Shown piece after piece: positions 7,278 through 41,174 of a DNA stretch of 64,000 bases. The notes under the pieces were generated by a model. That model searched no databases and was not told the origin of the DNA. It worked only from the letters and a program-made list of their open reading frames with translations. Origin of the DNA: a virus. The stretch covers positions 14,301 through 78,300 of IMG/VR virus record IMGVR_UViG_3300018476_000013; one strand, written 5' to 3'. The translations under genes and the position numbers were made by a program. Every line of letters begins with the position of its first letter. The first letter of the stretch is position 1.

Positions 7278-7472
7278 ATGGCAGCAGTAAAAAAGAAAAG
7301 GAAACGGGGTGGTGCTAGCATGCCCTGCCCCGAGTGTGGGTCTCATTCTCATGTGATCATCACCAAGAGGATAGATGACAAAGTTGAGCGGCAGCGGGAA
7401 TGCCTGGGTCGGCGGCCTCACAAATTTCACACTTACGAAGAGGTCAGTTATGAAGCTGTATCTAGCAGCTAG
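7278..7472 (+). CDS. NrdR/Ogr-like zinc-ribbon protein
   Basis: MPCPECG...RQRECLG..HKFHTYE resembles the NrdR N-terminal zinc ribbon; no ATP-cone. Confidence 0.7.
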   Translation: MAAVKKKRKRGGASMPCPECGSHSHVIITKRIDDKVERQRECLGRRPHKFHTYEEVSYEAVSSS

Positions 7473-7854
7473 GTTCGCCAGGCGGGAAAAATTAGTAACC
7501 GACGCCATCCCATTCCTAGAAGAAGATGGTCACAAGATCACTTCACGATGGTTATGGGAAGAGGATGATGGAGGAGAAGGCGCGGCCCGGATCTGCCTGC
7601 AGGACATTGACAGGTCTGAGGCCGTGGTTCTTTTCACTGATCCAGTGGGGTCAAAGAATGCAGGTGGCGGTCGTTGGTTTGAAGCTGGATATGCTTACGC
7701 CAACAATCGCCGCCTGTTCATTGTGGGTGAACAAGAGGCCGTGTTCACTTACCTGCCCCTGATCACTGTTTGCCAGGACGTCGACCACTTACGGCGTGAA
7801 CTCGACAACTACAATACCGACCTCATTAAACATCTGGCGCGTCCACTCAGCTGA
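7450..7854 (+). CDS. nucleoside 2'-deoxyribosyltransferase / nucleotide N-glycosidase-like protein
   Basis: KLYLAARF, DIDRSEAVV, GRWFEAGYAYA, VFTYLP pattern. Confidence 0.75.
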   Translation: MKLYLAARFARREKLVTDAIPFLEEDGHKITSRWLWEEDDGGEGAARICLQDIDRSEAVVLFTDPVGSKNAGGGRWFEAGYAYANNRRLFIVGEQEAVFTYLPLITVCQDVDHLRRELDNYNTDLIKHLARPLS

Positions 7855-8217
7855 GGATTTCCAGGGCTCACGGTCAAGCGGGGGTGGAGTGATCACCCGC
7901 TTGATGCCCCTGGAGACAATGGACTTGGCGCATTCATTGCACGGAAACATCGTCACTGCTAATGTGCTGCCCTCTAGATCGAAGTGGGCATTGTCCAAGG
8001 CATTGCGTTCAGCGTGCTGGGTCATGGCGTACTTGGTATTCTTATCCAGCAACCGCTCAGGGCTGTCTTCTATGCCAGGCGGAAATCCATTGTAGCCGAT
8101 GGTGATGTTCCGGCGGTCTTTGCCGACAATGACTGCACCCACTCGCGTGGACGGGTCCTTGCTCCACACAGCTACATGATGGGCCAAAACAAAATATCGT
8201 TGATCCCAGTCGGTCAT
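7789..8217 (-). CDS. dCMP deaminase
   Basis: SKDPSTRVGAVIV, GYNGFP, HAERNA, PCNEC zinc motifs. Confidence 0.93.
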   Translation of the reverse strand: MTDWDQRYFVLAHHVAVWSKDPSTRVGAVIVGKDRRNITIGYNGFPPGIEDSPERLLDKNTKYAMTQHAERNALDNAHFDLEGSTLAVTMFPCNECAKSIVSRGIKRVITPPPLDREPWKSSAEWTRQMFNEVGIVVVEFTP

Positions 8218-8390
8218 CAAACAAATCCCTTTTCTTCCGCCAGCCATTCAGGCATGGTGAAGGTCCCATCTTTGTTGTCCTCGACCTGGGACTTGGGCAC
8301 CCATTCCGTTTTGATCCCATCGAAAAGACGATACGCTTTTTCCGTTTCGCCTCGGAGCTCTGCCGCTATGTCGATAAGCTTTTCGGCCAT
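8217..8390 (-). CDS. small conserved phage protein
   Basis: ETEKA..WVPKSQVE..TMPEWLAEEKG; translationally coupled. Confidence 0.7.
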   Translation of the reverse strand: MAEKLIDIAAELRGETEKAYRLFDGIKTEWVPKSQVEDNKDGTFTMPEWLAEEKGFV

Positions 8391-8758
8391 CACGCTACCA
8401 GATCCGAAAGGTCCGGGGCGGTCCAACCCATGGGCTTGACTACATCATGAGCCGATCCCCGCTTCGAGTCCGAACCATCGGCCTTGGCCTTGACTTTCTT
8501 CATGTTGGCTTCGTGAACCCGCTTCCATGCTTCATCAAAGTCAAAGCCGTGCAGGTACGCTGTGCCCAGGGCGACATAGACCAGATCGACCAAAGCATCG
8601 AGCTTGTCCTCTAATGGATACTCACAATATTCGGTCAGCTCCTCGGTCATGAATTTCAATCGGAAGGATGCCAGGTCATCCGGCAATTGCCGAGGGCCGT
8701 CAGTGTAGGCCAATCCGAATTTCTCGTGGAAATCTTTGATGTCAGAATAGAAGCTCAT
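8390..8758 (-). CDS. MazG-like / PRA-PH nucleotide pyrophosphohydrolase (all-alpha dUTPase-like)
   Basis: EELTE..DALVDLVYVALG..VHEANMKK..VVKP.GW..PDL. Confidence 0.88.
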   Translation of the reverse strand: MSFYSDIKDFHEKFGLAYTDGPRQLPDDLASFRLKFMTEELTEYCEYPLEDKLDALVDLVYVALGTAYLHGFDFDEAWKRVHEANMKKVKAKADGSDSKRGSAHDVVKPMGWTAPDLSDLVA

Positions 8759-9105
8759 ATGATCACTCGTTTCCTTGGTTGGAGAGGTGGTAGGTCTTCC
8801 AGCATAAAATCTAATGCACGGCCAATCGGGGTCGATGGCTGTCCATCAGAATCTCTTAAACACGCTTCACGCAAGTCAGTCACGGGACATCCATGCTGGA
8901 TGGCCAATGACACAGCAATGGCAGCATCAGAGGCAGCCATGTCCACTTCACTGCCGGCACGGCCACTGCTGTTAAGGAATAGTTCACCAGGTTCACCGTT
9001 GTCGTAATATCCAATGGTGACATGGTACTTCTGATTTTGATGTTCGAACTTGATCGTCTGATGAGCCCGACGATTGGGAAGTCTGTTTCGCATTACACCA
9101 CCCAT
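8755..9105 (-). CDS. stand-alone TSCPD-domain protein (class II RNR C-terminal-like)
   Basis: RNRLPNRR, PGELFL, AIAVSLAIQHG pattern. Confidence 0.75.
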   Translation of the reverse strand: MGGVMRNRLPNRRAHQTIKFEHQNQKYHVTIGYYDNGEPGELFLNSSGRAGSEVDMAASDAAIAVSLAIQHGCPVTDLREACLRDSDGQPSTPIGRALDFMLEDLPPLQPRKRVII

Positions 9106-10529
9106 TCCCTTGGAGGATCAGACATCACCACGATTGCCAAGTCAATTTTCTTTCGCATGGCGTAAATGATTTTCCACTCAACAGTATCCCGAGTGGCGAA
9201 GTCAACCACCGTCACTCGATCTGTTTTCTTGACGTGCGATGCTCGTTCCTCTGATTGGTCCCGGTGCTCCAGGTTGTCGGTGTTGGAGTAATAGACAATC
9301 AGGTTTGCTTCAGACCAATCCCTGCCACGGCCACCACTACCGGGGGTGGCAACAATGAACCGGCAGTCGGGGTCAGTCTTGAACCTGTTGGAATTCTCTT
9401 CTCGGTCCTTGCGGTTCTGTCCCCAGAATTCCACCACTGATCCGGCGCCGAACTCTTTGGTGATGGCTGCAGCGACCTTCAGAAGATCCCGGCCATAGCT
9501 GCACCAGATGATTGCCTTGCCATCATACTCGCCGAGTAGATCAAGCAATGATTGGGTCCGGTTCTCGGGCACGGCATGTGCTGATTGATCTTCCGCCGTC
9601 GCCCATCCGCAGCACAGTTGATGCAGGCGCAGGTTGGTGGTGATGCTTTGTTGCGCCGACATGTAAACACCGGGAGAGATTTCCGCCGTGGCCGTGGCTT
9701 CCATCTCAGCGTAGAGCCGTTCCTGTTGTGGGGTCATCTCGACCTCACGAGTGACGTACAATTTCTCAGGGACATCCGAACAATCTTCCAGGCGCTTGCG
9801 GTAGCTGTGGGGTTCTAATTTCCTCCACAACTCTTCAACCTTGTCCGTGAACCGGACTGGAATGCGAATGGAATACTTGCCACCAACCCGCAGGTGCTTG
9901 ACGATGGCATATCGCTGTTCGAATGCTTTGTAGCTGATGAAGCCCAGCAATCCAGGTTTCAAGAATTCGAACTGCCCCCATAGATCAAGCGGGCTTCGGG
10001 GTGTTGGCAGGCCAGTCAAGATCCTGGTCCGCGTGGCCATGGGCCTCAGGGCGTGCAATGTCCTGGCACGGCTTGACCCCGTGGTGACATTCTCCCAATT
10101 CTTGATCGTGGTCGCTTCATCGACGATCAGGGTTGACTCAGGATGGCTTTGCAAGATCTGGGCGCACGCGTGCCGAATGGCATCCACTGTGCTGAAGGCT
10201 TCGACATTGGCAACCAAGATCCTGGGCCGGTTACCTTTCACGAATAGATGCTCGATAGATTTCTTGCCCCGCTTGCTGTCCCATATGCCAATCAATGGCC
10301 GATCAGGTTCTTCAAGATGATTGGCGAATTCAGTTTCCCAGACGCGGTATGATCCCGCCGGCGCCGTGATGACTAGGGCGCCACCCCGTTTCAGATTATT
10401 CGTCTGCTGCCAATCGTCGATGGCGACTTTGGTCTTGCCCGTTCGCATGGCCATCAGCAACGCGAAAACGTCGCGGCCGGCCATCCGTTGAAGAGCTTCA
10501 ATTTGATGTGCATAAGGTCTGAATGTCAT
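9093..10529 (-). CDS. SNF2-family (SF2) helicase
   Basis: PYAHQ, MRTGKTK, IVDEA, LTGLP, QSEERA motifs; ORF could extend to 10568. Confidence 0.9.
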   Translation of the reverse strand: MTFRPYAHQIEALQRMAGRDVFALLMAMRTGKTKVAIDDWQQTNNLKRGGALVITAPAGSYRVWETEFANHLEEPDRPLIGIWDSKRGKKSIEHLFVKGNRPRILVANVEAFSTVDAIRHACAQILQSHPESTLIVDEATTIKNWENVTTGSSRARTLHALRPMATRTRILTGLPTPRSPLDLWGQFEFLKPGLLGFISYKAFEQRYAIVKHLRVGGKYSIRIPVRFTDKVEELWRKLEPHSYRKRLEDCSDVPEKLYVTREVEMTPQQERLYAEMEATATAEISPGVYMSAQQSITTNLRLHQLCCGWATAEDQSAHAVPENRTQSLLDLLGEYDGKAIIWCSYGRDLLKVAAAITKEFGAGSVVEFWGQNRKDREENSNRFKTDPDCRFIVATPGSGGRGRDWSEANLIVYYSNTDNLEHRDQSEERASHVKKTDRVTVVDFATRDTVEWKIIYAMRKKIDLAIVVMSDPPREWVV

Positions 10530-10559
10530 GGTGCCCTTCATAAAATAAAAATCGCCAGG

Positions 10560-10606
10560 GGTATACACTGAATTTTAGTTAGGATAAACCTTCAACTTCA
10601 CTTCAA
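10560..10606 (-). promoter_or_regulatory. leftward phage promoter, TGAAG-repeat class
   Basis: Minus strand reads TTGAAGTGAAGTTGAAGG-TTTATC-17 nt-TATACC upstream of the SNF2 operon. Confidence 0.55.
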
Positions 10607-10618
10607 CTGGAGCAGCAA

Positions 10619-10876
10619 ATGGACGTAGTAAAACTGACGGAAGAACGAGGTCAAGTCCATGGGGACTTTACCGACGTATCGGAGATCGCCCAAAGCTTAA
10701 AGGCCGTTGTCCGTAATGGCAAGTCATTCAATCAATTGACGAGGGTGCAGGTTGAAGGCCTCGACATGATCCTGCACAAGATCGCCCGGATCGTTTCGGG
10801 CAATGCCAACCACCATGATCATTGGGATGACGTCGCCGGGTATGCTCACATCGTATCGAAGAGGATCACCAAGTAA
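10619..10876 (+). CDS. DUF6378-like protein
   Basis: ERGQVHGDF..MILHKIARIVSG..HDHWDDVAGYA. Confidence 0.75.
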   Translation: MDVVKLTEERGQVHGDFTDVSEIAQSLKAVVRNGKSFNQLTRVQVEGLDMILHKIARIVSGNANHHDHWDDVAGYAHIVSKRITK

Positions 10877-12243
10877 TGTGTGGCTGGGTAGCACAAGCTG
10901 AAGTTGAAAACGATGAGCACTTCGCCGAAGCCATTCGGAGGATCAGCCATCGCGGCACTCGAGTGACCATCAAGGAAACAAACGGCAGCATCCTTGCTCA
11001 CTCCCGTTTGCCGATTGTCGGGCTGTCAGAAAAATACGACCAGCCCGTCGAGACGGATGACTGGCTGATTGCATTCTCCGGGGAGGTCCTGGACTTCAGG
11101 GAGGAAGACCCCGCTGCCGAATGTGATTTGCCTCTCGTTGTCGAGGGTTGGGAGCGGTATAAGTCCAAAGCCCTCAGGGGCCGGGATGGGTTCTGGAATA
11201 TCATCGCCATCGATAAAACAGATGGAACGCTCCACATTACATGCGATTACCTGGGACAGAAGCCAGCCTATTACCGGCAGGATGTTCTGGCTGCCGCTTC
11301 CGAACCGGATGCATTACTGCCCCTCGGGCCGGTGACATTCGATGAAGTGTACCTGGCAGCGGTGATCAAGTGGGGATACTGCCCGGAGATCGAGCGGACC
11401 CCTTACAATGAGATCAAGAAAGTCCGGCCGGGGGAGCATATCCAACTGGATGATCTTGGGACATTCGGCCAAGGACAAATCGTCGATCAATTGGTGCCCC
11501 GGCCAGGTGACCTGCGGAAGGAAATAGAACTGGCCGTCCGCCGGCGGGTAATGGCATCAGATGTGCCGGTGGCTTGCTTGTTGTCGGGTGGATTGGACAG
11601 CTCAATCGTTTATACCTTGGCCTCGTGCTATGGCCAGGTCAAGCCATATTACGTCGACCTCGGGGACAATGACATAGAAGAACGAATGGCCGTTGGTGCT
11701 GTCGCCGGCAAGGCCAAGGTCATGGAGGTCAACGGTTCTTCACTTGACATCCCGGTGATGGAGCAACTGGACTACATGCAAGAGCCCATCGACCTGGGTT
11801 CGTTGGTGCCACAGATCGCTTTGGCCCGTGTCATCCCTGAGAATGTTTGCCTGACGGGCGATGGTGCTGATGAAGTGTTCGGGGGTTATGGCAGGGCATA
11901 TCGTTATGACAGCCAGGGCTCGGATGTATTCCATGAATTGCCGGCGTGGCATCTGCCGCGGCTTGATCGGGTGATGATGAGGCACCTGATTGAAGTACGC
12001 AGCCCATTCTTGTCCCGCCGGGTGGTCGAGATTGGATTGTCCTTGCCCAGGGAATTGAGGACCGGCAAGCGGATACTCCGGGAAATCTTCCGGGACATCC
12101 TGCCTAAGAGCATTGCCGATCGGGCCAAGAAGCCATTGCGGATGCTGGGCATCAATGAAGCCCATCGCATTCATATGGTCAACGAGTTCAAACGGCGTCA
12201 TTACATCCGCAATGAAATGGATGTCGAGGAGATGAGTCGATGA
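10876..12243 (+). CDS. asparagine synthetase B-like glutamine amidotransferase
   Basis: N-terminal MCG nucleophile, HSRLPIVG, LLSGGLDSS PP-loop, LTGDGADEVFGGY, EVRSPFL. Confidence 0.9.
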   Translation: MCGWVAQAEVENDEHFAEAIRRISHRGTRVTIKETNGSILAHSRLPIVGLSEKYDQPVETDDWLIAFSGEVLDFREEDPAAECDLPLVVEGWERYKSKALRGRDGFWNIIAIDKTDGTLHITCDYLGQKPAYYRQDVLAAASEPDALLPLGPVTFDEVYLAAVIKWGYCPEIERTPYNEIKKVRPGEHIQLDDLGTFGQGQIVDQLVPRPGDLRKEIELAVRRRVMASDVPVACLLSGGLDSSIVYTLASCYGQVKPYYVDLGDNDIEERMAVGAVAGKAKVMEVNGSSLDIPVMEQLDYMQEPIDLGSLVPQIALARVIPENVCLTGDGADEVFGGYGRAYRYDSQGSDVFHELPAWHLPRLDRVMMRHLIEVRSPFLSRRVVEIGLSLPRELRTGKRILREIFRDILPKSIADRAKKPLRMLGINEAHRIHMVNEFKRRHYIRNEMDVEEMSR

Positions 12244-13745
12244 AGAAGCCAAAAGAAAAGCAATTGATTGCCGTGGGGATCACCTGCGGCATTGGTTCAT
12301 TGCTCGTGGGCGCCAAGGCCGCAGGGTTCAAGGTCGCGGGCAATGTGGAGTGGCGGAAATATTACCACCACCAGGACGAAACCGAGCGCAACACTTTCAC
12401 TGAGAATTTCCCTGGGGCGATCTTCCCCAACTCAGTGGAGCAGATGACGGAAGAAGAGTTCAGGAAGTTCAGCAACCCGGACATCGCTTTAGGCCATCCA
12501 GAATGCGGCAACTTCAGCGTGCTGAATGGCGCCCACAAGGACCGGCTCAACATGATGCTGGACCCTGCTGACATCCCGCTCTTCGTCGATCTGGTAGCCA
12601 AGCTGAAGCCCAGGTTCTTCGTGATGGACGACCTGCCCAAGTCCTTCATGGCGTACCCGATGGAAAAGTACGCAGAGAAATTGCCGGACTATGACCTGTA
12701 TCCGGAATGGATCAGCAACTGGGGCTACGGCAACGTCCAGAAGAACCGGAACCGGATGTTCATGCTGGGCGCGCTGCGGGCCGAGCGGTGGGCTTTCCGG
12801 CCGGGTGAGCAGGAACATACCCTGACCGTGGAAGATGTCATCGGTGACCTTGCTAAGCCATCTGTGAGGGGCAATATGCCCAATCATGACCCCCACGACC
12901 TGAAGTCCGTTTGTGCCAAGGCCCTGAACCTGGGTGAGTGGCGGAAACGGAATACCTGGGGCGAGGTCCAGAAGTACTTCGCCGACAAGGGCGGCGGGTT
13001 CACGCTGGAATATACCAGGGATGACGGCAAGCGGCTGAAGAGGATCGGCTTCCTCAAGGGCCATTGGGACGGGCCATCGCATGTGCTGACTGGTGGCAAT
13101 GCCATCCTGCACCACAAGCGCAATGAACCCTACACCATCCGGGAGCGGGCGCGCATTCAGGGCTTCCCTGATGACTTCGTCTTCTATGGTGCCAAGCTGA
13201 ACCCCAAGGGGGAATGGGAGCATGATGGTGACGGCACCATGGTCAAGCAGACCGGCAAGGCCATGCCAGTGCAGTTTGCTGAATATGTGTCCAAGCAGAT
13301 TGCTGCATTCATCAACAAGGAAGAGTTCGAGTCCAGTGGCCGCCGGGTGATCCCGCCCAATGAATACGTCGACCAGGCCAAGCAATGGTACTGCCAGAAT
13401 GTCGGCTATTCAGTGCAGAAGAAAGCATGTGGGGAATGCTGGCTCTTCAACAAATGCAGCATCAGGTCCGAGAAATACCAAATCGGTCCGCGCGCGCATA
13501 CCACAAAATCCGTTGTGGAAGAATGCCCCACAAATCAGCGAATTACGGGGGCTGTTTTAGGGGGAAATACTAGGACGCGTCAAGGGGGGCTCATGCCCTC
13601 TGCCAAAAAGCCTAATGAAATCAAGGTCCGTGAGGCCAAGAACACGGGAGGGACCAATAAAAAAACGCCCTCCCGAGATCCCCGAACTGGCCAGTCCAGG
13701 AAAACTGTCCATCAACCCATCGAAACCACCATTGAAGAGTTTTGA
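12240..13745 (+). CDS. divergent C5-cytosine DNA methyltransferase homolog (candidate carboxymethyltransferase)
   Basis: Motif I TCGIG, motif IV GHPECGNFS, motif VI VMDDL, motif VIII QKNRNR, motif IX TIRERARIQGFPDDF, motif X KQTGKAMPV; C-terminal Cys cluster. Confidence 0.88.
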   Translation: MKKPKEKQLIAVGITCGIGSLLVGAKAAGFKVAGNVEWRKYYHHQDETERNTFTENFPGAIFPNSVEQMTEEEFRKFSNPDIALGHPECGNFSVLNGAHKDRLNMMLDPADIPLFVDLVAKLKPRFFVMDDLPKSFMAYPMEKYAEKLPDYDLYPEWISNWGYGNVQKNRNRMFMLGALRAERWAFRPGEQEHTLTVEDVIGDLAKPSVRGNMPNHDPHDLKSVCAKALNLGEWRKRNTWGEVQKYFADKGGGFTLEYTRDDGKRLKRIGFLKGHWDGPSHVLTGGNAILHHKRNEPYTIRERARIQGFPDDFVFYGAKLNPKGEWEHDGDGTMVKQTGKAMPVQFAEYVSKQIAAFINKEEFESSGRRVIPPNEYVDQAKQWYCQNVGYSVQKKACGECWLFNKCSIRSEKYQIGPRAHTTKSVVEECPTNQRITGAVLGGNTRTRQGGLMPSAKKPNEIKVREAKNTGGTNKKTPSRDPRTGQSRKTVHQPIETTIEEF

Positions 13746-15812: not shown

Positions 15813-16520
15813 ATGACCCAACCACTTTTTGAATTCTGTCCGACGATAGTCTGCGGGCAAACGAAAAGCGGAGTCAGCATTACTTGCGGCCACTGTTCGA
15901 AGGGAGAAGTCATCGCCGTCAATAAGATGAGACGGCATGGCGAAGACGATTCGGGGATCATTGAACGAATGCTCGCCGACAAATTCGAACGGATAGGCTG
16001 GAAGGTTGGTAATGCCCCCAAGCATCACCGCTGCCCCGCTTGCTTCACAGCTATCAAATCAGCAGCCATCAGGAAAAAGGAAGAGCGCATGTCCGAGAAA
16101 GTAGTGCCCATCACTGCCACCCCCAATGCTCCAGCTAATGCGCCAGTCAATGGGACACCCCAACCACCGAGACCCATGACCCGTGATGAGCGTTACCTGA
16201 TCTTCAAAAAAATCGATGAGCACTATATCGGGGAGACCGTCGGCTACCATGAGAGTTGGAACGACGACAAGATCGCCAAGGACCTGGGCGTGCCCGTGGC
16301 GTTCGTGGCGACCGTGCGTGAAGAAAGCTTTGGCCCCAACATCGACGAACACTCGGTCAAGGTAATGACCGACGCCAAGACCTTGCTGGCTGACATCCGG
16401 CAAGCGGCCTCTGACATGGGGCCGATGATCAAACAGATTGAACCGTTCATGAAACACCTGCATGAATTGGTCGCCCGAAGTTCATCCATTGAAAAGAGCC
16501 TGAAGGAGTTGCAGCGATGA
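15813..16520 (+). CDS. hypothetical protein with zinc finger and HTH-like segment
   Basis: CGHC...CPAC; WNDDKIAKDLGVPVAFV. Confidence 0.7.
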   Translation: MTQPLFEFCPTIVCGQTKSGVSITCGHCSKGEVIAVNKMRRHGEDDSGIIERMLADKFERIGWKVGNAPKHHRCPACFTAIKSAAIRKKEERMSEKVVPITATPNAPANAPVNGTPQPPRPMTRDERYLIFKKIDEHYIGETVGYHESWNDDKIAKDLGVPVAFVATVREESFGPNIDEHSVKVMTDAKTLLADIRQAASDMGPMIKQIEPFMKHLHELVARSSSIEKSLKELQR

Positions 16521-16705
16521 CTGGTTACCCAAAAGGAGAATTCCCTGAGATCGTTTACCAAGGGGGTCAGACAGGTTGGTGTCTGACATCCCATAAGAGT
16601 TATGAGTTCGAAGACCACATGGAAGCAGTTATTGCTTTGTTGCCGGAAGGGCCGGTTAAAGAAAACCAGATCGAGTGGTTCAAAGAACTCAAGAGGCGGA
16701 AATGA
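16517..16705 (+). CDS. small hypothetical protein
   Basis: ATGA overlaps at both ends. Confidence 0.55.
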   Translation: MTGYPKGEFPEIVYQGGQTGWCLTSHKSYEFEDHMEAVIALLPEGPVKENQIEWFKELKRRK

Positions 16706-17547
16706 AATACCTCGGCGAATATCTGTCTTTCAAACCTGTTGCCAGATTGATCGAAGGCCAGATCAAGGAAGCACCCCCTGTCCGCACAGAACGCTGGCAG
16801 GGGGTGGCGCATAACCAGGACACGCGTGAACTGCTGAACGCCTCATTCATGGTGGATCTGCAGTGCATCGAGGATCTGGATCATTGGCGGAAGGACATCA
16901 AGACCAATCTGCCTTGGGCTGATGACCACTTCATGGAGCGGATCGGCGGCCAGCCATTGAACCCTGGTGTTCAGTGGGCGAACTGGCCGTGGTCCCGGTC
17001 AGCAGCCAACTTCAAGCAGGACAGGTTCAATCATACCTACATGGAAAGGCTCTGGCCCAAGTTTGCCCGCCGGACTGCTGATGGCCGGTTGCCGATGGGC
17101 AAGGGTGCAAGGAAGTATCCGCAGACAGACAACCGGCCAAAGCTGGGGGTCGGCTGGGCTTATGGGGACTTGCTGGATCTGGTGGAGTTGCTGGTCAAAG
17201 AACCCCACACTCGCCAGGGATGGATACCGCTGTTCTTCCCTGAAGATACGGGCATCGGGGATGGCGGCCGCAAGCCCTGCACCCTTGGCTATCAGATCAT
17301 TGTCCGTGATGGCAGAGCCCATATCTATTATCCCCTGCGGTCATGTGACTTCATCCGGCACTGGGCAGATGATTGCTACTTGGCTGTGCGCCTGTTGCTG
17401 TGGGTCATCGATGAATGCCGCAAGAGGTCGGAGTTCTGGAAGAACATCGCACCAGGCACTTATTCGATGCACATGACTTCTCTTCACATCTTTGAAACGG
17501 ATCTTAAGACCAATGAGCAAGCCGAGGCCACCGCAACAAGTATTTGA
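16702..17547 (+). CDS. thymidylate synthase-family protein, dCMP-type (hydroxy)methylase candidate
   Basis: KPCT catalytic Cys, RSCDFIRHWADD (Asp at the ThyA Asn177 position), SLHIF. Confidence 0.85.
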   Translation: MKYLGEYLSFKPVARLIEGQIKEAPPVRTERWQGVAHNQDTRELLNASFMVDLQCIEDLDHWRKDIKTNLPWADDHFMERIGGQPLNPGVQWANWPWSRSAANFKQDRFNHTYMERLWPKFARRTADGRLPMGKGARKYPQTDNRPKLGVGWAYGDLLDLVELLVKEPHTRQGWIPLFFPEDTGIGDGGRKPCTLGYQIIVRDGRAHIYYPLRSCDFIRHWADDCYLAVRLLLWVIDECRKRSEFWKNIAPGTYSMHMTSLHIFETDLKTNEQAEATATSI

Positions 17548-32849: not shown

Positions 32850-35800
32850 ATGCCGCTTCCCGTCACTATCACCGGCATAAGCACGGCGGTCGCACCGGTT
32901 GGGCCGTTTGCTGTCGCACCAAAGATGGGGCCGCTCGTTATTAGTACGGCGCTCGGCAATCTCATCACGAGCATGGGGTCTTCAGCAAACGGTACGGAAC
33001 GAGTTGGACAGGTTTTCACTGTTGGAGAGAATGGTGGAAGTCTTGCGTCTGCCCAACTGTTCTTGCAGAAGGTCGGTGCGCCAACAGACAACATTGTCGT
33101 CAATGTCTACAAGGCGGATGCTGCCGGTTTGATCCCGACAGGGGCATCGCTTGCTACAGCTAGCGTACTAGCATCAACCGTCGTGAACGGCAGTTGGATT
33201 ACCTTCACGTTCGCGACACCGCTCGCGCTCACTGCGAATACCAAGTATGTCCTGACCGCCCAACGCAGCGGCGCGATAAACACTTCGAATTACGTTAGTT
33301 GGTACGGCGGGGCAGACACGTATCCCGGTGGCTACTATTGTGTCTACTACTCTACAACCGGAAAATGGACAACAGAAACGCCGTACTTCAACGGCCACTG
33401 CATGTTGCTTCAGCTATTCGATGCTGGTGTTGGCACCTCGACATTGATCACAACGACTGTGGCGACCGCGCTCACACCATTCGGCAACGCGGCTAGGCCA
33501 CAGGTCGGGCAGACATTTACAACGACCGGCGATCTATCCATCACCAAGATCGGCTTCCGGCTTAGGAGAACGAGCGGTAACACCACCGATCAGATCGCAG
33601 TTGATATCTACGCGACAGATGCGGGTGGTTTGCCGACAGGCCCGTCGCTTGGGCGCGCCGCTGGGCCGACCAAGTGGATATCAACGTCACGCAGTGACGA
33701 GTATTCATTCTGGTTCGATGCCCCTATCGCCCTCGTTGCGGGGAAATATGCGGCGGTGCTGTCGCGCACTGGGTCAACAGACGAAGCAAACTATTTTAAT
33801 CTTCTAGGCGCATCGACAGATGTTTATGCAGGCGGGTCGCTGGTGTCGTTCAACGGCACAAGCTGGAGCGCAACTGCATCGTCGGATGGCGCACTGAAGA
33901 TCACCTATCTCACAGTGCCGACTTATTATCTGTTTGGCTTTAATGACATTGGTGGCTCTGATGGCAGGCGGCTTGTTACTCTGAAGGCCGATGATCCTTC
34001 ATCAGAATGGACGTTGATAAATAGCTTGCCGACAATCGGCAACACGCCGATCTATCAAATGGCAGGCTATCAGGTTGGCGGCGTTTTCCACATTCTGTTG
34101 AGTCAGTCAGGCTCCCCAACTATCAACGATGTCCGTTATTGCAAATGGGATTCCGCGACTGATAGTTGGGCTGTCAACAATGAAACTGTTGTCGCCAACG
34201 TATCGATGACGGGAACGACTTTCGCCCAATCGAATGGTGTTTCTTTAGTTGTTCGATCAACCGGTGATGTGGTTGCGTTCTATAACGGTGCATCAAGCAA
34301 CACATCAGGCAAGCCTTACTGCCGGTTGTACTATCGCATTCGCAGCAATGCCGGCACATGGGGCACAGCGGTCAGGGTCGATGCCAATACAGCGTTTGAC
34401 AATACTAGTCCTGAAGCCGTCCTGGGTGCCTCTGACATTGTTCATTTTCTGTGGGCGATCTCTTCTAGTATGCAGCATCGGGCTTTGTCGGCTGCGAACG
34501 CTCTGCAAACCGCCTCGACATACAGCATAACCAGTTGGGCACCAGAACAAGCCATTTCATATTCTAGTGCAGGTGTGACCAAAGTTGTCGCCGTCTCAAC
34601 AAATGCGGCCAATAGAAATACGGCAGTTCGTTTTGACAGCGGGCTCACCCCAACACTGGCAGGGACCTCTACTGGTAACAATGCTAATGCCCGGACGCCA
34701 AGCCGTATTTTTAACAATGGAGAAACACTTCACGTTCTCGAGTTACTTACAACCGCTAGTGATCTTAACATTACGTCATCAACTGACCATGGAGCCACTT
34801 GGTCCGCTCATATGGTAGCTTTTGCCGGGACAGTCGCTACATCTAGTACCAACCTTTCCAAAGACGCTACTATTTACCAGCGCGACAACAATTTTGTCAT
34901 CCCCTACCTCGTCAACGACAACGGGATATGGAAATACAACGAGTATGATGTCACGCCGCCAACAGTGGATGCGTGGAATAGAGCCGACAAATCTGCCAAC
35001 ATCACGTTATCGAACGCTGACAAGACCGCAATCGTTTCTGCTACGGGAGCTAGTGGTGTTCACTCGACGCAAACCCAGATGTCAGCGACAGCAGGGAAAT
35101 ATTATGCCGAATTAAAAGTTGAGGCGGTCGGCGGCCAGCTTGGCATGCAGATGACGGCCACTGATGAGACCAACGCTGGTTTCGCGAACAGCTATTATGT
35201 CGGCACTGACGGAAGGATTTGGTCTTCCACACAAGTTGTAGGCACTGTCGGCAGCGCCCTTGTTGCTGGAGATGTTGTCTGTCTGGCTACGGATTTCGGT
35301 GCCAAATTATATTGGTTCAAGAAAAACAACGATTTCTGGAATAACAGCGCTACGGCTGACCCTGCAACCGGCGTTGGCGGATTGGCTTCTTATGGTTCAG
35401 CGTTTCCATTCTCGCTTTGGTTTGGTGGTGGCGCAATAGGTTCTGGTGCCACTATCCGCACCGAGCTTGCCGATTTAACCCTACAAGGACCGGCCGGCTT
35501 CACAACATGGATGGGCGAGGTCATCCCGCTGCCGTCCATTGCCGATGCATGGAACGTCAATGACGTTGGCGTTGACGTTTCTCAAAATCTATCTAACGGC
35601 GACAAGACCGTGACAGCGACCGGCGCGGGTACTGGCGCAGCCAGATCGACGCAAAAAAGGGTCAACGGTCAGGCAGGTTTGTACTACGCGGAATGCCGTG
35701 TTGATCAACCTTACCTTCGTTTCGGGCTAAAACTCGTTACAAGCGCCATCGCAAGTCAAACTGCGGATGCGTTATACGTCAGCGACCAAGGACTTGTGCT

Positions 35801-38800
35801 GTTCAATGGTGTCACGCAAATCAATCTTGGAAGGCAGCCTATTGCAGGCGACGTAATATCGATTGCGTGGGACAGCGGGGCAGAGAAATTTTGGGCTCGG
35901 ATCAACGCGCTCCCTTGGAATAATAACGTAGCGGCTGATCCGGCAACAGGAGCTAATGGATTAGATGCGTCAGTTGCCATCGCTGGCGATTGGGCGCTTT
36001 GGTTTCAGAGTGGTGTCGCTTCTTCCGCCGGGACCATCCGCACCGAGAAGGATGAATTTACTCAGAGCACACCGGCAGGCTTCCTGTCATGGATGGGCGA
36101 GACCCTTGTCATTCCTGACATGGGCACCTTGGTTTCTGGTGCTGCATCCATCACTGGTGTCGGCGACGTTACATGGGCGGGGACAGGTAACCTTGCTCCG
36201 CAACCTAGTACAGTCATTGGATTAGCTGCTTCCCGTTCAACCGGCACTGGTGCGTTGGTGGCGGTTGGATATACGCGTACCAATCTACTCGCTCGCTCAC
36301 AAGAATTCGACATGTGGGCGGCTGAGAATGCGCTTCGCACAGGCAATACGACGACAGCGCCTGATAGCACGTTGACGGCAGATACGCTATCGGACGGCGT
36401 GGCCACCGGCACACATTACCTCTATCAACAAAATCTTCCTGCAACAAGTGGGGCGAATTATACATTCTCTGTTTACCTGAAGGCGGGCACCCTTAATTGG
36501 GCGCAGGTGATGCTCATCACACCCAATGTGCGTTGGGCAAACTTCGATCTTTCAACAGGCACGCTTGGACAGAAAGAATCCGCAGCCGTCACTGCGTCCC
36601 GTACCTATGTTAGTGATGGATGGTGGCGTTGTTCTGTTACCGCTACCCTGCAAGCCGGTACTAACTACATCGGCGGCTTCATTGCCCTGAAACAGGCAGA
36701 TGTTGTTTTCTCCCAGCAACACACTGGCACTGGCGCGACCTTCTATGCTTGGGGCGCACAGCTTGAGCGGGGTGATGTCGCGACGGCGTACATTCCAACA
36801 ACAACCGCCGCCGTCACTATTTCAGAAACACTCATTGGCACCGGCACCGTAAGCTGGAATGCAACTGGTGCGTTGAAATCTGGCGAATCCCGCACCAACT
36901 ACTTGGTGCAATCGCAAGCCCTCGCGTTCTATCCGCCGTGGAATACGCTGCGTCTCGTCGTCACCGACAACGTCGTAGCTGCGCCAGACGCGACGATGAC
37001 AGCGGAAAAGCTAGCCGACACTGCCGTCAACGATTCGCATTACCTGATGCAATACGTGGACACGGTTGCAGAGACCTACACGTACTCATTTTTCTTCAAG
37101 AACAACGATCACACCGGCTGGGTGCAGTTATCATCAGGCGGTGGTTGGGCGAACTTCAACATCGCGACTGGTGTTACAGGTTTAAAAGTCGGAGTGACCT
37201 CGGCAATCGAGCCGCTGGCAGATGGTTGGTATCGTTGTTCGATAACCGGCGCGATGCCGGGGGGCTCGTCAATCAACTTCAACATTTACCTGATGCTAGC
37301 TGACGTTTCGTCGCGGCTCTACCTTGGAAGCGGTAAATCAATTTATGCGTGGGGCGGTCAGATAGAGCGCACGCCTGCTCCGACAGCTTACATTCCGACA
37401 ACAACTGCACCTGTAACTATCGGCAATTCACCACTTCTAACTGGTGCTGGTGTCGTCACTACACCACCTGCTTATGGTACGGGCGCACTGACCACGAGCA
37501 TTGCTGGTCTTGCTGGACTAGGTATCTCCAGTTCGGTTGGCACGGCGCCATTGGTTGCGGCAGGAAAGACCCGCATCAATCATTTCTTGTACTCGCAACA
37601 GTTTGATATCGGCACATGGACGAAGGCCGCTAGTGTCATCACTGCTGAAAATGCGATTGCACCAGATAACACGCTGACGGCAGATCTTCTGACGGATACC
37701 GTTGCGAGTGCTAACCACTACATGATGCAAAGCGGCGTCGGTTTTACGGCGCCAATAGGCACCAACACATATTCGATTTACATCAAATCAAAGACGTTGA
37801 CATGGATACAGCTACGGGTCTCTGACATAGATACCTTCTGGGTCAACTTCAATATCGTCACTGGTGCGAAAGGGCTAGACTCGGCGAATGGTCTTACGAC
37901 AATTATCACGCCGGTAGGCAATGGCTGGTATCGTTGTTCGGTAACATTTCCGCATCCTCAAACTAACTGGAATGCGAATTGTTTCGTCATCATGCAGGTG
38001 GCGGATGAACCGATATCCAATTTTGTCGGCACCGGATTGTCAGCCTGGTTGTGGGGTGCGCAATTTGAATTGGGCGGGCAAGTCACCGCTTACATACCGA
38101 CAATAAACTCAGTTGTATCTGTCACTGATGTCTTGACTGGTGTTGGCCTCATAGACAACACGGGCACTGGTGTCCTGGTTGTCACGCAGCCCGCTACACT
38201 CAGTGGCGAGGGCGGCATACAGTGGAATGCTACTGGTGTGCTGGCATCCCATCCAGCAACCGTGGTCGGTGTCGGCAAAGCTGTTGATCCTCCGACCACC
38301 GGCACTGGCGCACTGATATCACTGGGTATTGCTGCGGTCGCAGGCACTGGTACATCGGCATCGATTGGTGGATCGATCGCCAATGATCTTGTGATCTATG
38401 GCGGCACCAAGAACCAATATACATGGGGCAGGACTAGTGTCAGCGGCATTGGGCAGGTCTTTATCGCTACCGGTCCGGTGATCACACAAGTAACGCCGTA
38501 TATCGGGAAAGTCCTTACGCCGACCGACTCAGTAGTGGTGAAGCTTTATACTTCGGCTGGTGGTTTACCAGGGACATTGCTCGGTACTTCAGATCCGATC
38601 CTCGGATCAGACCTGCCAAATTCTAATTCATTGCCGGTGACGTTTACGTTCCCGACGCCGATCCCAGTCCAGAATGGCACTTCATACGTCGTTACATTCA
38701 CGCGCACGGGCGCGTTCGATGCCAACGGTTATTATCTGAATGGCTACGTCTCCTCCAGTATTTATGCTGGCGGCGGAATGATAACGATGAGCAGCGGCTC

Positions 38801-41174
38801 GTGGACCACGAGCGCCTCTATTTATGATACCTGGACAACCATCAGCCAATCCTACACCAAGGGATTGGTGCCGAGCGATGCTACGATAACTGCCCCTGGT
38901 GGTTTCGTAGAATACATTGCGACCGGCGCACTTGTTAATGACCCCGCTGTTATCGAGTCGATTGGTTCTGTCATTGATGGTCCCGCGCATGGCACGGGCG
39001 TACTGGTCAATCTCGGGATAGCCAATGTCGTTGGCGTTGCTATTTCGGGTTCAGTTGGTGCGCCTAACCTGCAGCCATCCAACTCGGTTGCATCAGGCGC
39101 GGGTGTCACCAAGGTTGATGGCAGTGCCGTACTGACTTCATCGAATGCCGCTGTTAATTCAGTTGGTCTTGTCCGCGATATCATCAAGGGTCCTGGTGTT
39201 CTAGCCGCTGGTGCTTCGGCGCTGACAGCATTGGGCACGGCCATGACGCCCGCCAAGGGCGATGGCGTTCTTGTTGTTACGGCACTTGCTGTTGTTCAAG
39301 GTAACGGCATTGTCGAATGGAATGTCACCGGCACGGGTGCACTGACTAACACCGATCCTTCGGTTTTGATTGCCCAGGGTAAATCAGAAACCAGGGGCAC
39401 TGGTGCTCTCACATCGACATCAACGATTGTTGGTGGTGGTTTCATTCGATGGATTGTCACCGGTGCTCTAGTTCAGAGCCGGCCAACTATTACTGCTCCT
39501 GGCGTATCGCGTTCGATTGGTTCTGGCGCATTCGTTGTTTCTAATACAGCCGCCGTCAGTGGTCTTGGTTCGGTATTCTCTGGCGTCAGTGGCATCGGCA
39601 CGCTGACATCGTTTGCCACACTGTCTGCGATAGGTCGCTCAGAGTCGAAGGGTGTTAGTGTTCTGACATCTTCGGCGGTATCTGTGACGGGTGTCTCCAC
39701 TTCCCTCTCATCCGGCGCTGCTGTTTTAACTGATCTGCCATCTGTCCTTGCGGCATCCGGCAAATCGATATTCGCAGCTACTGGTTCGTTGGCTGATCAA
39801 CCAGCCAGCATCAGTGGTGTTGGTTCTGCAAGATGGTTGGCGTCGGGCACATTGCCCGCACCTGCCGCGACATTGACGGCCTTGGGTGCTTCGAGGTGGT
39901 CGGGCATCGGTATACTGACCCCGGCTTTGGCTGCGGTAACGGGCTCTGGTATTGGGCAGGCCATCGGTGCTGGTGTTTTGCCAGCAGCCCCCTCTACAAT
40001 CGTAAGCTTCGAGGGTGTTACCGTCATCTCTGGTACAGGCACTTTGCAAGTTGGTGCCTCGGCTGTCACTGGTTCTGCTTATTCAATCTGGAGGGGGACA
40101 GGTTCTCTAATCAGTACAGCCAGCATCCTGGCGGGTGTGGGTGGATCTATCTGGAGGATGTCCGGGGCACTGGTCCCGGCTCCGGCAGTGGTGGCGGCCA
40201 CCGGTATTGGCGCCGTTCAGGGCACTGCCCCATTGTTGGCGGCTCGGTCTACGGTCTACGGTTACGAAGGCGTCAGCGTAATAACGGGCACGGGTGCCCT
40301 ACAATCCCAGTCCTATCTGGCTACGGGCCTTGGCTTTAGCCGCACCAGCGGGGCCGGCACGTTGACTGAGGCCCCATTCGGGGTGGTGGGTGAGGGGCTG
40401 ATCCAATCCACCGGCGCTGGCGTGCTGCTGGATGTCCAATCGGCCCTGAGTGGAACCGGTCTATCAGCCACTGGGGGCTCGGGTGTCCTGGGTTCCACGG
40501 CCACGGTCAGTGGTTCTGGCCAGGCCCAGTGGCTCGGATCTGGCGTTCTAACCTCGGATATTGCTGGGCTGGTCGCGGCAGCCGTTTCCGGTTCTCGGGG
40601 TGTGGCTCCCCTGGGTGTTGGTCTCTCGACCCTATCTGCCATTGGTCAAAGCGATGTCAAGGGCACGGCGGCACTAACATCCTCTTCGGCCATCATGATT
40701 GGCTTTGCCAATCTGGTCTCTTCCGGCGCTGGTGTGCTGGTCGCTGAAGATCATGTCGTAGAGGGTTCTGGTCTTCAGTTCGCCAGTGGTTGGGGTCAAC
40801 TATATTCTTATCGGTTTGAAATCGAGGGCCTTGGTCAGACCTGGAATACTGGTGTCGGAAATCTGATCAGCCATTACCCGGCATTGATGCTGGGCCGTGG
40901 TGCTGTTTCATCGAATGCGATTGGTGTTCTGCAAGCCGGGACTGCAAAGATCGTCGGTGGCAGTATCCAGACCACTGGCCTTGGTGTTCTGCTTGCTCAA
41001 CGGAGCACCATCCATGGTGTCGGTTATGTTGAAACGATCACTCCGCCTGTAGAAGGCGAATGGGTTCCTACACCATTGCCACCCAGCTACCATGGTGTTG
41101 CGTCATGGGGTGGTGCATCTATGGTTAGGCCCTGGGTCAATCCCGGCATCCAGCCGTGGCGTAGGGTAGGATAA
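32850..41174 (+). CDS. giant (2774 aa) multi-domain virion spike/fibre adhesin
   Basis: 3 GQ(V/T)F repeats, Asp-box SSTDHGATWS, 2 SPRY-like domains, 3 RTN..WG(A/G)Q(L/I/F)E..TAYIPT domains, long G/S/A/T/V stalk. Confidence 0.85.
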   Translation: MPLPVTITGISTAVAPVGPFAVAPKMGPLVISTALGNLITSMGSSANGTERVGQVFTVGENGGSLASAQLFLQKVGAPTDNIVVNVYKADAAGLIPTGASLATASVLASTVVNGSWITFTFATPLALTANTKYVLTAQRSGAINTSNYVSWYGGADTYPGGYYCVYYSTTGKWTTETPYFNGHCMLLQLFDAGVGTSTLITTTVATALTPFGNAARPQVGQTFTTTGDLSITKIGFRLRRTSGNTTDQIAVDIYATDAGGLPTGPSLGRAAGPTKWISTSRSDEYSFWFDAPIALVAGKYAAVLSRTGSTDEANYFNLLGASTDVYAGGSLVSFNGTSWSATASSDGALKITYLTVPTYYLFGFNDIGGSDGRRLVTLKADDPSSEWTLINSLPTIGNTPIYQMAGYQVGGVFHILLSQSGSPTINDVRYCKWDSATDSWAVNNETVVANVSMTGTTFAQSNGVSLVVRSTGDVVAFYNGASSNTSGKPYCRLYYRIRSNAGTWGTAVRVDANTAFDNTSPEAVLGASDIVHFLWAISSSMQHRALSAANALQTASTYSITSWAPEQAISYSSAGVTKVVAVSTNAANRNTAVRFDSGLTPTLAGTSTGNNANARTPSRIFNNGETLHVLELLTTASDLNITSSTDHGATWSAHMVAFAGTVATSSTNLSKDATIYQRDNNFVIPYLVNDNGIWKYNEYDVTPPTVDAWNRADKSANITLSNADKTAIVSATGASGVHSTQTQMSATAGKYYAELKVEAVGGQLGMQMTATDETNAGFANSYYVGTDGRIWSSTQVVGTVGSALVAGDVVCLATDFGAKLYWFKKNNDFWNNSATADPATGVGGLASYGSAFPFSLWFGGGAIGSGATIRTELADLTLQGPAGFTTWMGEVIPLPSIADAWNVNDVGVDVSQNLSNGDKTVTATGAGTGAARSTQKRVNGQAGLYYAECRVDQPYLRFGLKLVTSAIASQTADALYVSDQGLVLFNGVTQINLGRQPIAGDVISIAWDSGAEKFWARINALPWNNNVAADPATGANGLDASVAIAGDWALWFQSGVASSAGTIRTEKDEFTQSTPAGFLSWMGETLVIPDMGTLVSGAASITGVGDVTWAGTGNLAPQPSTVIGLAASRSTGTGALVAVGYTRTNLLARSQEFDMWAAENALRTGNTTTAPDSTLTADTLSDGVATGTHYLYQQNLPATSGANYTFSVYLKAGTLNWAQVMLITPNVRWANFDLSTGTLGQKESAAVTASRTYVSDGWWRCSVTATLQAGTNYIGGFIALKQADVVFSQQHTGTGATFYAWGAQLERGDVATAYIPTTTAAVTISETLIGTGTVSWNATGALKSGESRTNYLVQSQALAFYPPWNTLRLVVTDNVVAAPDATMTAEKLADTAVNDSHYLMQYVDTVAETYTYSFFFKNNDHTGWVQLSSGGGWANFNIATGVTGLKVGVTSAIEPLADGWYRCSITGAMPGGSSINFNIYLMLADVSSRLYLGSGKSIYAWGGQIERTPAPTAYIPTTTAPVTIGNSPLLTGAGVVTTPPAYGTGALTTSIAGLAGLGISSSVGTAPLVAAGKTRINHFLYSQQFDIGTWTKAASVITAENAIAPDNTLTADLLTDTVASANHYMMQSGVGFTAPIGTNTYSIYIKSKTLTWIQLRVSDIDTFWVNFNIVTGAKGLDSANGLTTIITPVGNGWYRCSVTFPHPQTNWNANCFVIMQVADEPISNFVGTGLSAWLWGAQFELGGQVTAYIPTINSVVSVTDVLTGVGLIDNTGTGVLVVTQPATLSGEGGIQWNATGVLASHPATVVGVGKAVDPPTTGTGALISLGIAAVAGTGTSASIGGSIANDLVIYGGTKNQYTWGRTSVSGIGQVFIATGPVITQVTPYIGKVLTPTDSVVVKLYTSAGGLPGTLLGTSDPILGSDLPNSNSLPVTFTFPTPIPVQNGTSYVVTFTRTGAFDANGYYLNGYVSSSIYAGGGMITMSSGSWTTSASIYDTWTTISQSYTKGLVPSDATITAPGGFVEYIATGALVNDPAVIESIGSVIDGPAHGTGVLVNLGIANVVGVAISGSVGAPNLQPSNSVASGAGVTKVDGSAVLTSSNAAVNSVGLVRDIIKGPGVLAAGASALTALGTAMTPAKGDGVLVVTALAVVQGNGIVEWNVTGTGALTNTDPSVLIAQGKSETRGTGALTSTSTIVGGGFIRWIVTGALVQSRPTITAPGVSRSIGSGAFVVSNTAAVSGLGSVFSGVSGIGTLTSFATLSAIGRSESKGVSVLTSSAVSVTGVSTSLSSGAAVLTDLPSVLAASGKSIFAATGSLADQPASISGVGSARWLASGTLPAPAATLTALGASRWSGIGILTPALAAVTGSGIGQAIGAGVLPAAPSTIVSFEGVTVISGTGTLQVGASAVTGSAYSIWRGTGSLISTASILAGVGGSIWRMSGALVPAPAVVAATGIGAVQGTAPLLAARSTVYGYEGVSVITGTGALQSQSYLATGLGFSRTSGAGTLTEAPFGVVGEGLIQSTGAGVLLDVQSALSGTGLSATGGSGVLGSTATVSGSGQAQWLGSGVLTSDIAGLVAAAVSGSRGVAPLGVGLSTLSAIGQSDVKGTAALTSSSAIMIGFANLVSSGAGVLVAEDHVVEGSGLQFASGWGQLYSYRFEIEGLGQTWNTGVGNLISHYPALMLGRGAVSSNAIGVLQAGTAKIVGGSIQTTGLGVLLAQRSTIHGVGYVETITPPVEGEWVPTPLPPSYHGVASWGGASMVRPWVNPGIQPWRRVG

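Follow-up and report, generated by a model that had tools for sequence, protein, structure and literature searches.

We describe a phage protein that, as we conclude with confidence from its structural model, is a very divergent member of the thymidylate-synthase (TS) superfamily, and whose active site appears from its residues to be of the cytosine type and not the uracil type, an assignment that is well supported. The protein probably makes an altered cytosine for phage DNA through a dCMP-directed, pre-replicative modification of C5. This proposal had been put forward in the initial annotation, and it is well supported by the residues, the fold and the gene neighbourhood, which make dCMP the probable substrate. 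The TS homolog is one of more than 1000 proteins that form an uncharacterised clade confined to phages. The active-site signature of this clade (Asp177 and Arg143 with Asp169 kept, in E. coli ThyA numbering) fits no published class, whether methyl, hydroxymethyl or hydroxy, because Arg occupies position 143 and Asp169 is retained.

The window, that is, the whole 64,000-nt stretch of DNA that was analysed, comprises bases 14301-78300 of a 78,300-bp IMG/VR record with a CheckV completeness of 92%. A megablast search of phage records with 20 kb of the window gave no match. The gene, the open reading frame that precedes it and the key codon are as follows, in window positions:

16517..16705, + strand: small ORF of 62 aa, the stop of which overlaps the start of the TS homolog (ATGA)
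16702..17547, + strand: TS homolog (P0001), 281 aa, stop-free; predicted TS-fold, cytosine-type enzyme
17371..17373, + strand: codon GAT for Asp224, at the ThyA Asn177 (base-specificity) position

The TS homolog starts with ATG 16702 and its stop lies at 17547. The ATG shares the sequence ATGA with the stop of the preceding ORF and has AAGAGG just 5′ of it, the overlap suggesting translational coupling of the 62-aa ORF and the TS homolog. We preferred this start over GTG 16675 because relatives can be aligned from residue 1 of the ATG-16702 product.

Active site, fold and family of the TS homolog

The stretch RSCDFIRHWADD (residues 213-224, where R213 is CGG 17338-40 and D224 is GAT 17371-73) is in register with ThyA RSCDVFLGLPFN (R166-N177) both in HMMER alignments of the TS homolog with the solved structures MilA and AfhB and in MAFFT alignments with E. 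coli ThyA, T4 gp42, RB69 gp48, SPO1 gp29, M6, phiW-14 and the PaMx74 TS, and the two methods agree. Residues R213, S214, C215, D216, H220 and D224 thus correspond to R166, S167, C168, D169, G173 and N177 of ThyA, and further equivalents are the catalytic C193 (C146), R190 (L143), H262 (H207), F264 (Y209) and R171 (R126′). Two substitutions on which the initial annotation was built, Asp at the Asn177 position and His in place of the conserved Gly, were both confirmed by HMMER and MAFFT alike. Conservation was counted over 270 aligned family members, with the sequences aligned at each position as the denominator:

ThyA Y94: Tyr in the family, 259/261
ThyA L143: Arg in the family, 259/260
ThyA C146: Cys in the family, 256/259
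ThyA H147: Thr or Ser in the family, 256/259
ThyA D169: Asp in the family, 249/254
ThyA G173: His in the family, 243/255
ThyA N177: Asp in the family, 251/252
ThyA Y209: Phe in the family, 231/247

Equivalents of the catalytic C193, of R213-S214-C215-D216, of R171 and of H262 are kept in at least 249 of about 255 aligned relatives. Because Asp at N177 and His at G173 are near-invariant across the family, neither can be put down to chance.

Asp at position 177 goes with selection of cytosine (PMC13326640; PMC8670742). According to Hardy & Nalivaika 1992 and Graves et al. 1992, as cited in PMC8670742, N177D switches ThyA to dCMP and D179N switches the T4 dCMP hydroxymethylase (dCH) to dUMP. Positions 147 and 165, at which differential conservation in modified contigs is highest (PMC8670742), hold Thr/Ser and a hydrophobic residue (L/I/M) in the family, matching T4 gp42, RB69 gp48 and the PaMx74 TS.

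The AlphaFold2 model of the TS homolog, built on 85 relatives, has a mean pLDDT of 94.8 and a pTM of 0.92. A Foldseek search with this model returned 396 matches at E<=0.001; all the matches listed were TS-family chains, with TM values of up to 0.73, and those at the top act on cytosine nucleotides (the dCMP hydroxylase AfhB, 9iqc/9iqu; the CMP hydroxymethylase MilA; T4 dCH). MilA (1.3e-5 with the single sequence, 3.5e-9 with the profile) and AfhB were also the best sequence matches in the PDB. The protein is missed by Pfam PF00303, which only a minority of its relatives carry, and has no Pfam match even at E<=1; PHROG 160 'thymidylate synthase' detects it at 1.4e-22. No sequence alignment to known TS enzymes was found for its N-terminal half (approximately residues 1-150). 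Because this half does not align and the Pfam model stays below threshold, folate binding by the TS homolog is predicted only.

At E<=0.001 the TS homolog has 1075 relatives in 90% clusters, with 553 representatives at 50% identity, and relatives occur at 551 or more IMG/VR loci (at least). Cultured carriers are phages of Serratia, Pseudomonas, Brevundimonas, Gordonia, Streptomyces, Microbacterium, Mycobacterium and Clostridium, in which the protein is mostly annotated 'thymidylate synthase'; a literature search for experimental data on the DNA of Serratia phage Serbin, Pseudomonas phage PMBT14, Brevundimonas phage Strzyga and Muddy found none. When seven characterised enzymes were included in a tree, the family formed its own clade on a long branch, with no reference inside it and joining none, and only this separation is to be taken as reliable, given the long branches; the same tree places the PaMx74 TS, a 5-methyl-type enzyme, with E. 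coli ThyA. Some family members (P0145, P0122, P0130, P0229) contain an intein (Intein_splicing/Hint, P0145) or LAGLIDADG-domain inserts, and the insert of P0145 lies near the catalytic Cys region. Inteins and LAGLIDADG inserts are often found in conserved essential genes.

Gene neighbourhood and mutually exclusive partners

The TS homolog shares the phage genome with further genes for nucleotide metabolism and DNA modification, given here in window positions except for the last:

7789..8247, - strand: dCMP/dCTP-family zinc deaminase (Pfam PF00383, 9.7e-22; MafB19-deam)
8390..8758, - strand: PRA-PH/MazG-type nucleoside-triphosphate pyrophosphatase (Pfam PF01503, 4.1e-11)
8755-9105, - strand: TSCPD-like small protein (sub-threshold TSCPD-domain match)
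9093-10568, leftward operon: SNF2 helicase
10619-10876, + strand: DUF6378 protein (3.1e-8)
10876..12243, + strand: AsnB-like glutamine amidotransferase / PP-loop synthetase (Pfam PF00733, GATase_6/7)
12240..13745, + strand: C5-cytosine-MTase-like enzyme with rewired motifs (Pfam PF00145, 3.5e-19)
12024-13657 of the record, upstream of the window: Amidoligase_2 protein (PF12224, 4.7e-40), followed by an AIG2/gamma-glutamyl-cyclotransferase-like protein

The leftward operon consists of the SNF2 helicase, the TSCPD-like protein, the PRA-PH/MazG pyrophosphatase and the dCMP-family deaminase. The rightward operon holds DUF6378, the AsnB-like and C5-MTase-like genes, an N6/N4-MTase, several small ORFs, the TS homolog, a Cas4-like nuclease, a nucleotidyltransferase and a primase-polymerase; the DUF6378 gene stands just before the AsnB-like gene in 8 related loci. 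The PRA-PH/MazG protein is 55% identical to the NTP-PPases adjoining the TS homolog in Strzyga and MW202777 and is likely to be a dCTPase that supplies dCMP and clears dCTP from the pool. Elsewhere in the genome, the pair of Amidoligase_2 and cyclotransferase-like proteins may represent an additional module of the phage for modification or peptide ligation. A 159-aa ORF (window 7375-7854, + strand), convergent with the deaminase gene, has a sub-threshold nucleoside 2-deoxyribosyltransferase match (PF05014, E=0.0024). Downstream of the portal gene, the structural region contains a single ORF of 2774 aa (window 32850-41174, + strand).

A search of the genome for the two later functions of the proposed pathway gave a divided answer. 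A family-A DNA polymerase (PolA) was found in the record, upstream of the window, but motif scans, BLAST and HMM searches of the 78.3-kb record (92% complete) turned up no P-loop dNMP kinase. In Walker-A scans of the genome the only credible P-loop proteins were the helicase and the terminase, and the other short-motif matches of a loose scan were not judged to be kinases. HMM searches of this genome gave no counterpart for the kinase, the second TS-fold protein, the AAA_24 protein or the PD-(D/E)XK nuclease of the relatives, and no glycosyltransferase genes were seen near the TS homolog.

We examined the gene context in 80 related IMG/VR loci, taking 10 kb on either side (+/-10 kb) of the TS homolog. 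A deaminase was present in 72 of these loci, PolA in 64, a PRA-PH/dUTPase-like pyrophosphatase in 54, a kinase in 46 and ThyX in 7; a DHFR homologous to that of PaMx74 was found neither in the 80 loci nor in the 78.3-kb genome. In Serbin, Strzyga and MW202777 the gene order is kinase - NTP-PPase - x - TS - deaminase - PolA. MetaGPA studies found the same neighbourhood to be enriched on cytosine-modified viral contigs (PMC8670742; bioRxiv 10.1101/2024.12.05.627091). In that neighbourhood 5/7 tested TS homologs made 5mdCMP, and the deaminase converted 5-methyl-dCTP to dTTP (bioRxiv 10.1101/2024.12.05.627091). These screens would have missed most of the present clade because a match to PF00303 was required.

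Directly upstream of the TS homolog, 58/80 loci (for example, L025:3795-4616) encode a protein of approximately 270 aa, here called hyp270, which has no Pfam match and is absent from the window. Its AF2 model (pLDDT 89.6) has a TS fold with Foldseek matches to MilA and AfhB, and its sequence carries Cys...Y-R-T-T-E...D in the register of C146...R166...N177. On the basis of this model, we assign hyp270 as a predicted second cytosine-type TS-fold enzyme. An hhalign comparison of the TS clade with the hyp270 family was not significant (probability 0.9%), though the active-site register agrees, and the proposed relation between the two rests on the modelled fold.

The AsnB-like and C5-MTase-like pair accompanies the TS homolog here and in 16/80 related loci (about 15-17 of the 80), and no locus has both this pair and hyp270 (0 loci; Fisher p=8e-13). 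The AsnB/MTase context occurs in at least 3-4 separate places on the TS tree. The partner swap offers just 3 phylogenetically independent contrasts (sign test p=0.25), and the TS homolog has the same active-site residues whichever partner it accompanies. As evidence of functional interchange, the exclusivity of the partners is suggestive, not proven. The initial annotation had regarded the TS homolog as a second route to modified cytosine beside the AsnB/MTase operon. We dropped the reading of an independent second route, as the TS homolog is co-inherited with this cassette; the AsnB/MTase cassette is instead one of two interchangeable companions of the TS clade.

In the C5-MTase-like protein, motif IV reads GHPECGNFS (HPEC for PC), ENV is replaced by DDL (FVMDDLP), and motif X reads TGKAMPV (GKAMP for GNxV). 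Lys at the motif-X Asn allows the engineered M.MpeI N374K to use carboxy-SAM, and the natural CmoX has Arg there (PMC12783734); the C5-MTase-like protein has Lys at that same position. AsnB-like amide ligases are also predicted by Yang et al. to partner CmoX. The AsnB-like partner described here has no close homolog in cultured phages, the best being 27% identical.

Proposed mechanism and candidate products

We suggest that the TS homolog binds a cytosine mononucleotide, most likely dCMP, with Asp224 reading N3/N4 of the cytosine and with R171′, R213 and S214 gripping the phosphate. Cys193 would then attack C6, and the C5 substituent would be added before replication. The PRA-PH/MazG pyrophosphatase would provide dCMP from dCTP, and the modified dCMP would be phosphorylated, apparently by host kinases in this phage (many relatives bring their own kinase), for incorporation by the phage family-A polymerase; the dCMP-family deaminase would feed the thymidine branch. 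Full replacement of C by a C5-substituted base does not sit easily with the C5-MTase-like enzyme that this phage also encodes.

Published rules tie the product to two further positions: hydroxymethylation is associated with Asp/Glu at 143 and methylation with a hydrophobic residue at that position, and Asn at 169 (D169N) is the mark of flavin-dependent 5-hydroxy-dCMP synthases, being present in every tested 5hodCMP synthase (PMC13326640). ThyA positions 143 and 173 are within 6 A of C5 (residue list, PMC13326640). The invariant Arg and His that the family has at these two positions are accounted for by no published rule. The C-terminal tails also differ: the TS homolog has 19 residues after the H207 equivalent and its family a median of 15; ThyA has 57, the PaMx74 TS 63, T4 gp42 30 and RB69 gp48 14. 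In ThyA, the C-terminal arm shuts the folate site and is required for hydride transfer (cf. PDB 1tda), and Asp169 binds the pterin. Three features speak against a methyl product, namely the missing arm, the lack of a DHFR and the exchange of Gly173, and a non-methyl group is favoured.

Among the individual products, hydroxymethyl is our single best guess, held tentatively. The initial annotation had likened the protein to the T4 dCMP hydroxymethylase; the likeness stands at Asp177, but it does not extend to position 143, where the TS homolog has Arg and not Asp/Glu, and the protein falls outside every characterised clade. With T4 gp42 (PDB 1b5e, 6a9a) it shares the TS fold, the catalytic Cys, Asp177, Thr at 147, a hydrophobic residue at 165 and a shortened C-terminus, and the partners of T4 gp42 likewise include a dCTPase, a deaminase and a phage-encoded polymerase. 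The two differ in that T4 gp42 has Asp143, Gly173 and Tyr209 in place of Arg143, His173 and Phe209, shows no detectable similarity to the TS homolog in the N-terminal half and belongs to a separate clade; unlike T4, this phage is without a gp1-like kinase and without a glucosyltransferase. The best sequence match among solved structures, the mildiomycin CMP 5-hydroxymethylase MilA (PDB 5b6d, 5jnh), likewise has Asp177, Thr147 and Arg at 172, but differs in its Asp143, Gly173 and Tyr209 and in acting on a ribonucleotide in an antibiotic pathway of Streptomyces. All the characterised hydroxymethylases compared have Asp/Glu at 143, where the TS homolog has Arg190 (rule from PMC13326640).

A possible, though less probable, alternative is that the clade installs an undescribed C5 group (not methyl, hydroxymethyl or hydroxy) that partner enzymes then process. 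Such a group could arise if the nucleophile that traps the exocyclic-methylene intermediate were neither water nor hydride, or it could be anionic and bound by Arg190 and His220; it might be finished at the nucleotide level by the second TS-fold enzyme, as in most of the phages, or on DNA by the AsnB-like enzyme and the Lys-type C5-MTase-like enzyme, as here. The invariant Arg143 and His173, which ThyA positions place close to C5, are consistent with this alternative, as are the mutual exclusivity of the two partner modules, with at least 3-4 exchanges between them on the TS tree, and the Lys that the MTase-like partner has at the motif-X Asn, as in the carboxymethyltransferase M.MpeI N374K (PMC12783734). 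The argument is nevertheless one of inference throughout, the exchanges supply only the 3 independent contrasts given above, and the exclusivity could stem from module shuffling among phage lineages and not from a shared pathway.

Of similarly low probability, in our estimate, is a methyl product made by a deoxycytidylate 5-methyltransferase of the Xp12/PaMx74 type, in which 5-methyl-dCMP is formed, 5mC replaces C in DNA and a deaminase encoded in cis converts 5-methyl-dCTP to dTTP. The Xp12/PaMx74 module (TS homolog, 5mdCTP deaminase, PRA-PH and DHFR) has Asp177, the in-cis deaminase, PRA-PH and PolA in common with the present system, and it was in such a neighbourhood of TS(Asp177), deaminase, PRA-PH and PolA that 5 of the 7 tested homologs made 5mdCMP (bioRxiv 10.1101/2024.12.05.627091). 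Pairing with a deaminase in the absence of ThyA/ThyX also fits this route (a deaminase in 72/80 loci, as against ThyX in only 7/80), and the polar Asn at 143 of the PaMx74 TS indicates that a polar residue there is compatible with the methylase type. The PaMx74 TS differs, however, in its 63-residue C-terminal arm, Gly173 and Tyr209 and in having a DHFR alongside; it clusters with E. coli ThyA and scores only 28 bits against the profile of the TS homolog family. The TS homolog has 19 residues in place of the 57-63 of the methylating enzymes and His in place of Gly173, no DHFR is found here although all eight Pamexvirus phages encode one (PMC9206674), and the C5-MTase-like partner cannot act on 5mC.

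Less likely again is a flavin-dependent dCMP hydroxylase resembling RB69 gp48 or HY126 AfhB (PDB 9iqc, 9iqu; PMC13326640), which would yield 5-hydroxy-dCMP. AfhB, with dCMP and FAD bound (9iqc), is the best Foldseek match, and RB69 gp48/AfhB have Asp177, a very short C-terminus, Phe209, H-x-F-E-x-D and a non-Gly residue at 173 in common with the TS homolog, the H-[IV]-F-E-x-D motif, Phe209 and short tail of which resemble those of the flavin enzymes. The diagnostic D169N is absent, however, and the retained Asp169 points to folate rather than flavin; position 143 has Arg and not Glu, no arabinose or other glycosyl-transfer genes were seen nearby, and the family is a separate clade.

The remaining alternative, an ordinary phage thymidylate synthase acting on deaminase-made dUMP, agrees with the 'thymidylate synthase' label of the relatives in databases, with an encoded deaminase able to make dUMP and with the lack of another TS at most loci, but we rejected it as highly improbable because Asp177 is invariant in the family and is the residue reported in PMC8670742 to switch the base choice of ThyA and T4 dCH; H147 and Q165 are replaced as well, and the C-terminal arm is absent.

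Implications for phage DNA modification

The strategy itself is already known from T4 and Xp12; it is the enzyme branch, with its signature and partners, that is uncharacterised. Nearly every known pyrimidine hypermodification of phage DNA begins with a TS-superfamily enzyme. The three-position rules, in which 177 sets the base, 143 separates methyl from hydroxymethyl and 169 marks hydroxy, fail for this clade. The partner swap between a second TS-fold enzyme and the AsnB/MTase-like pair provides a concrete, testable pathway hypothesis, and the undescribed-group reading, if true, would mean a new family of cytosine hypermodifications. Knowledge of the product would reveal the base carried by these phages, would explain their resistance or sensitivity to restriction enzymes and modification-dependent defences, and could possibly lead to new nucleotide-modifying enzymes for biotechnology.
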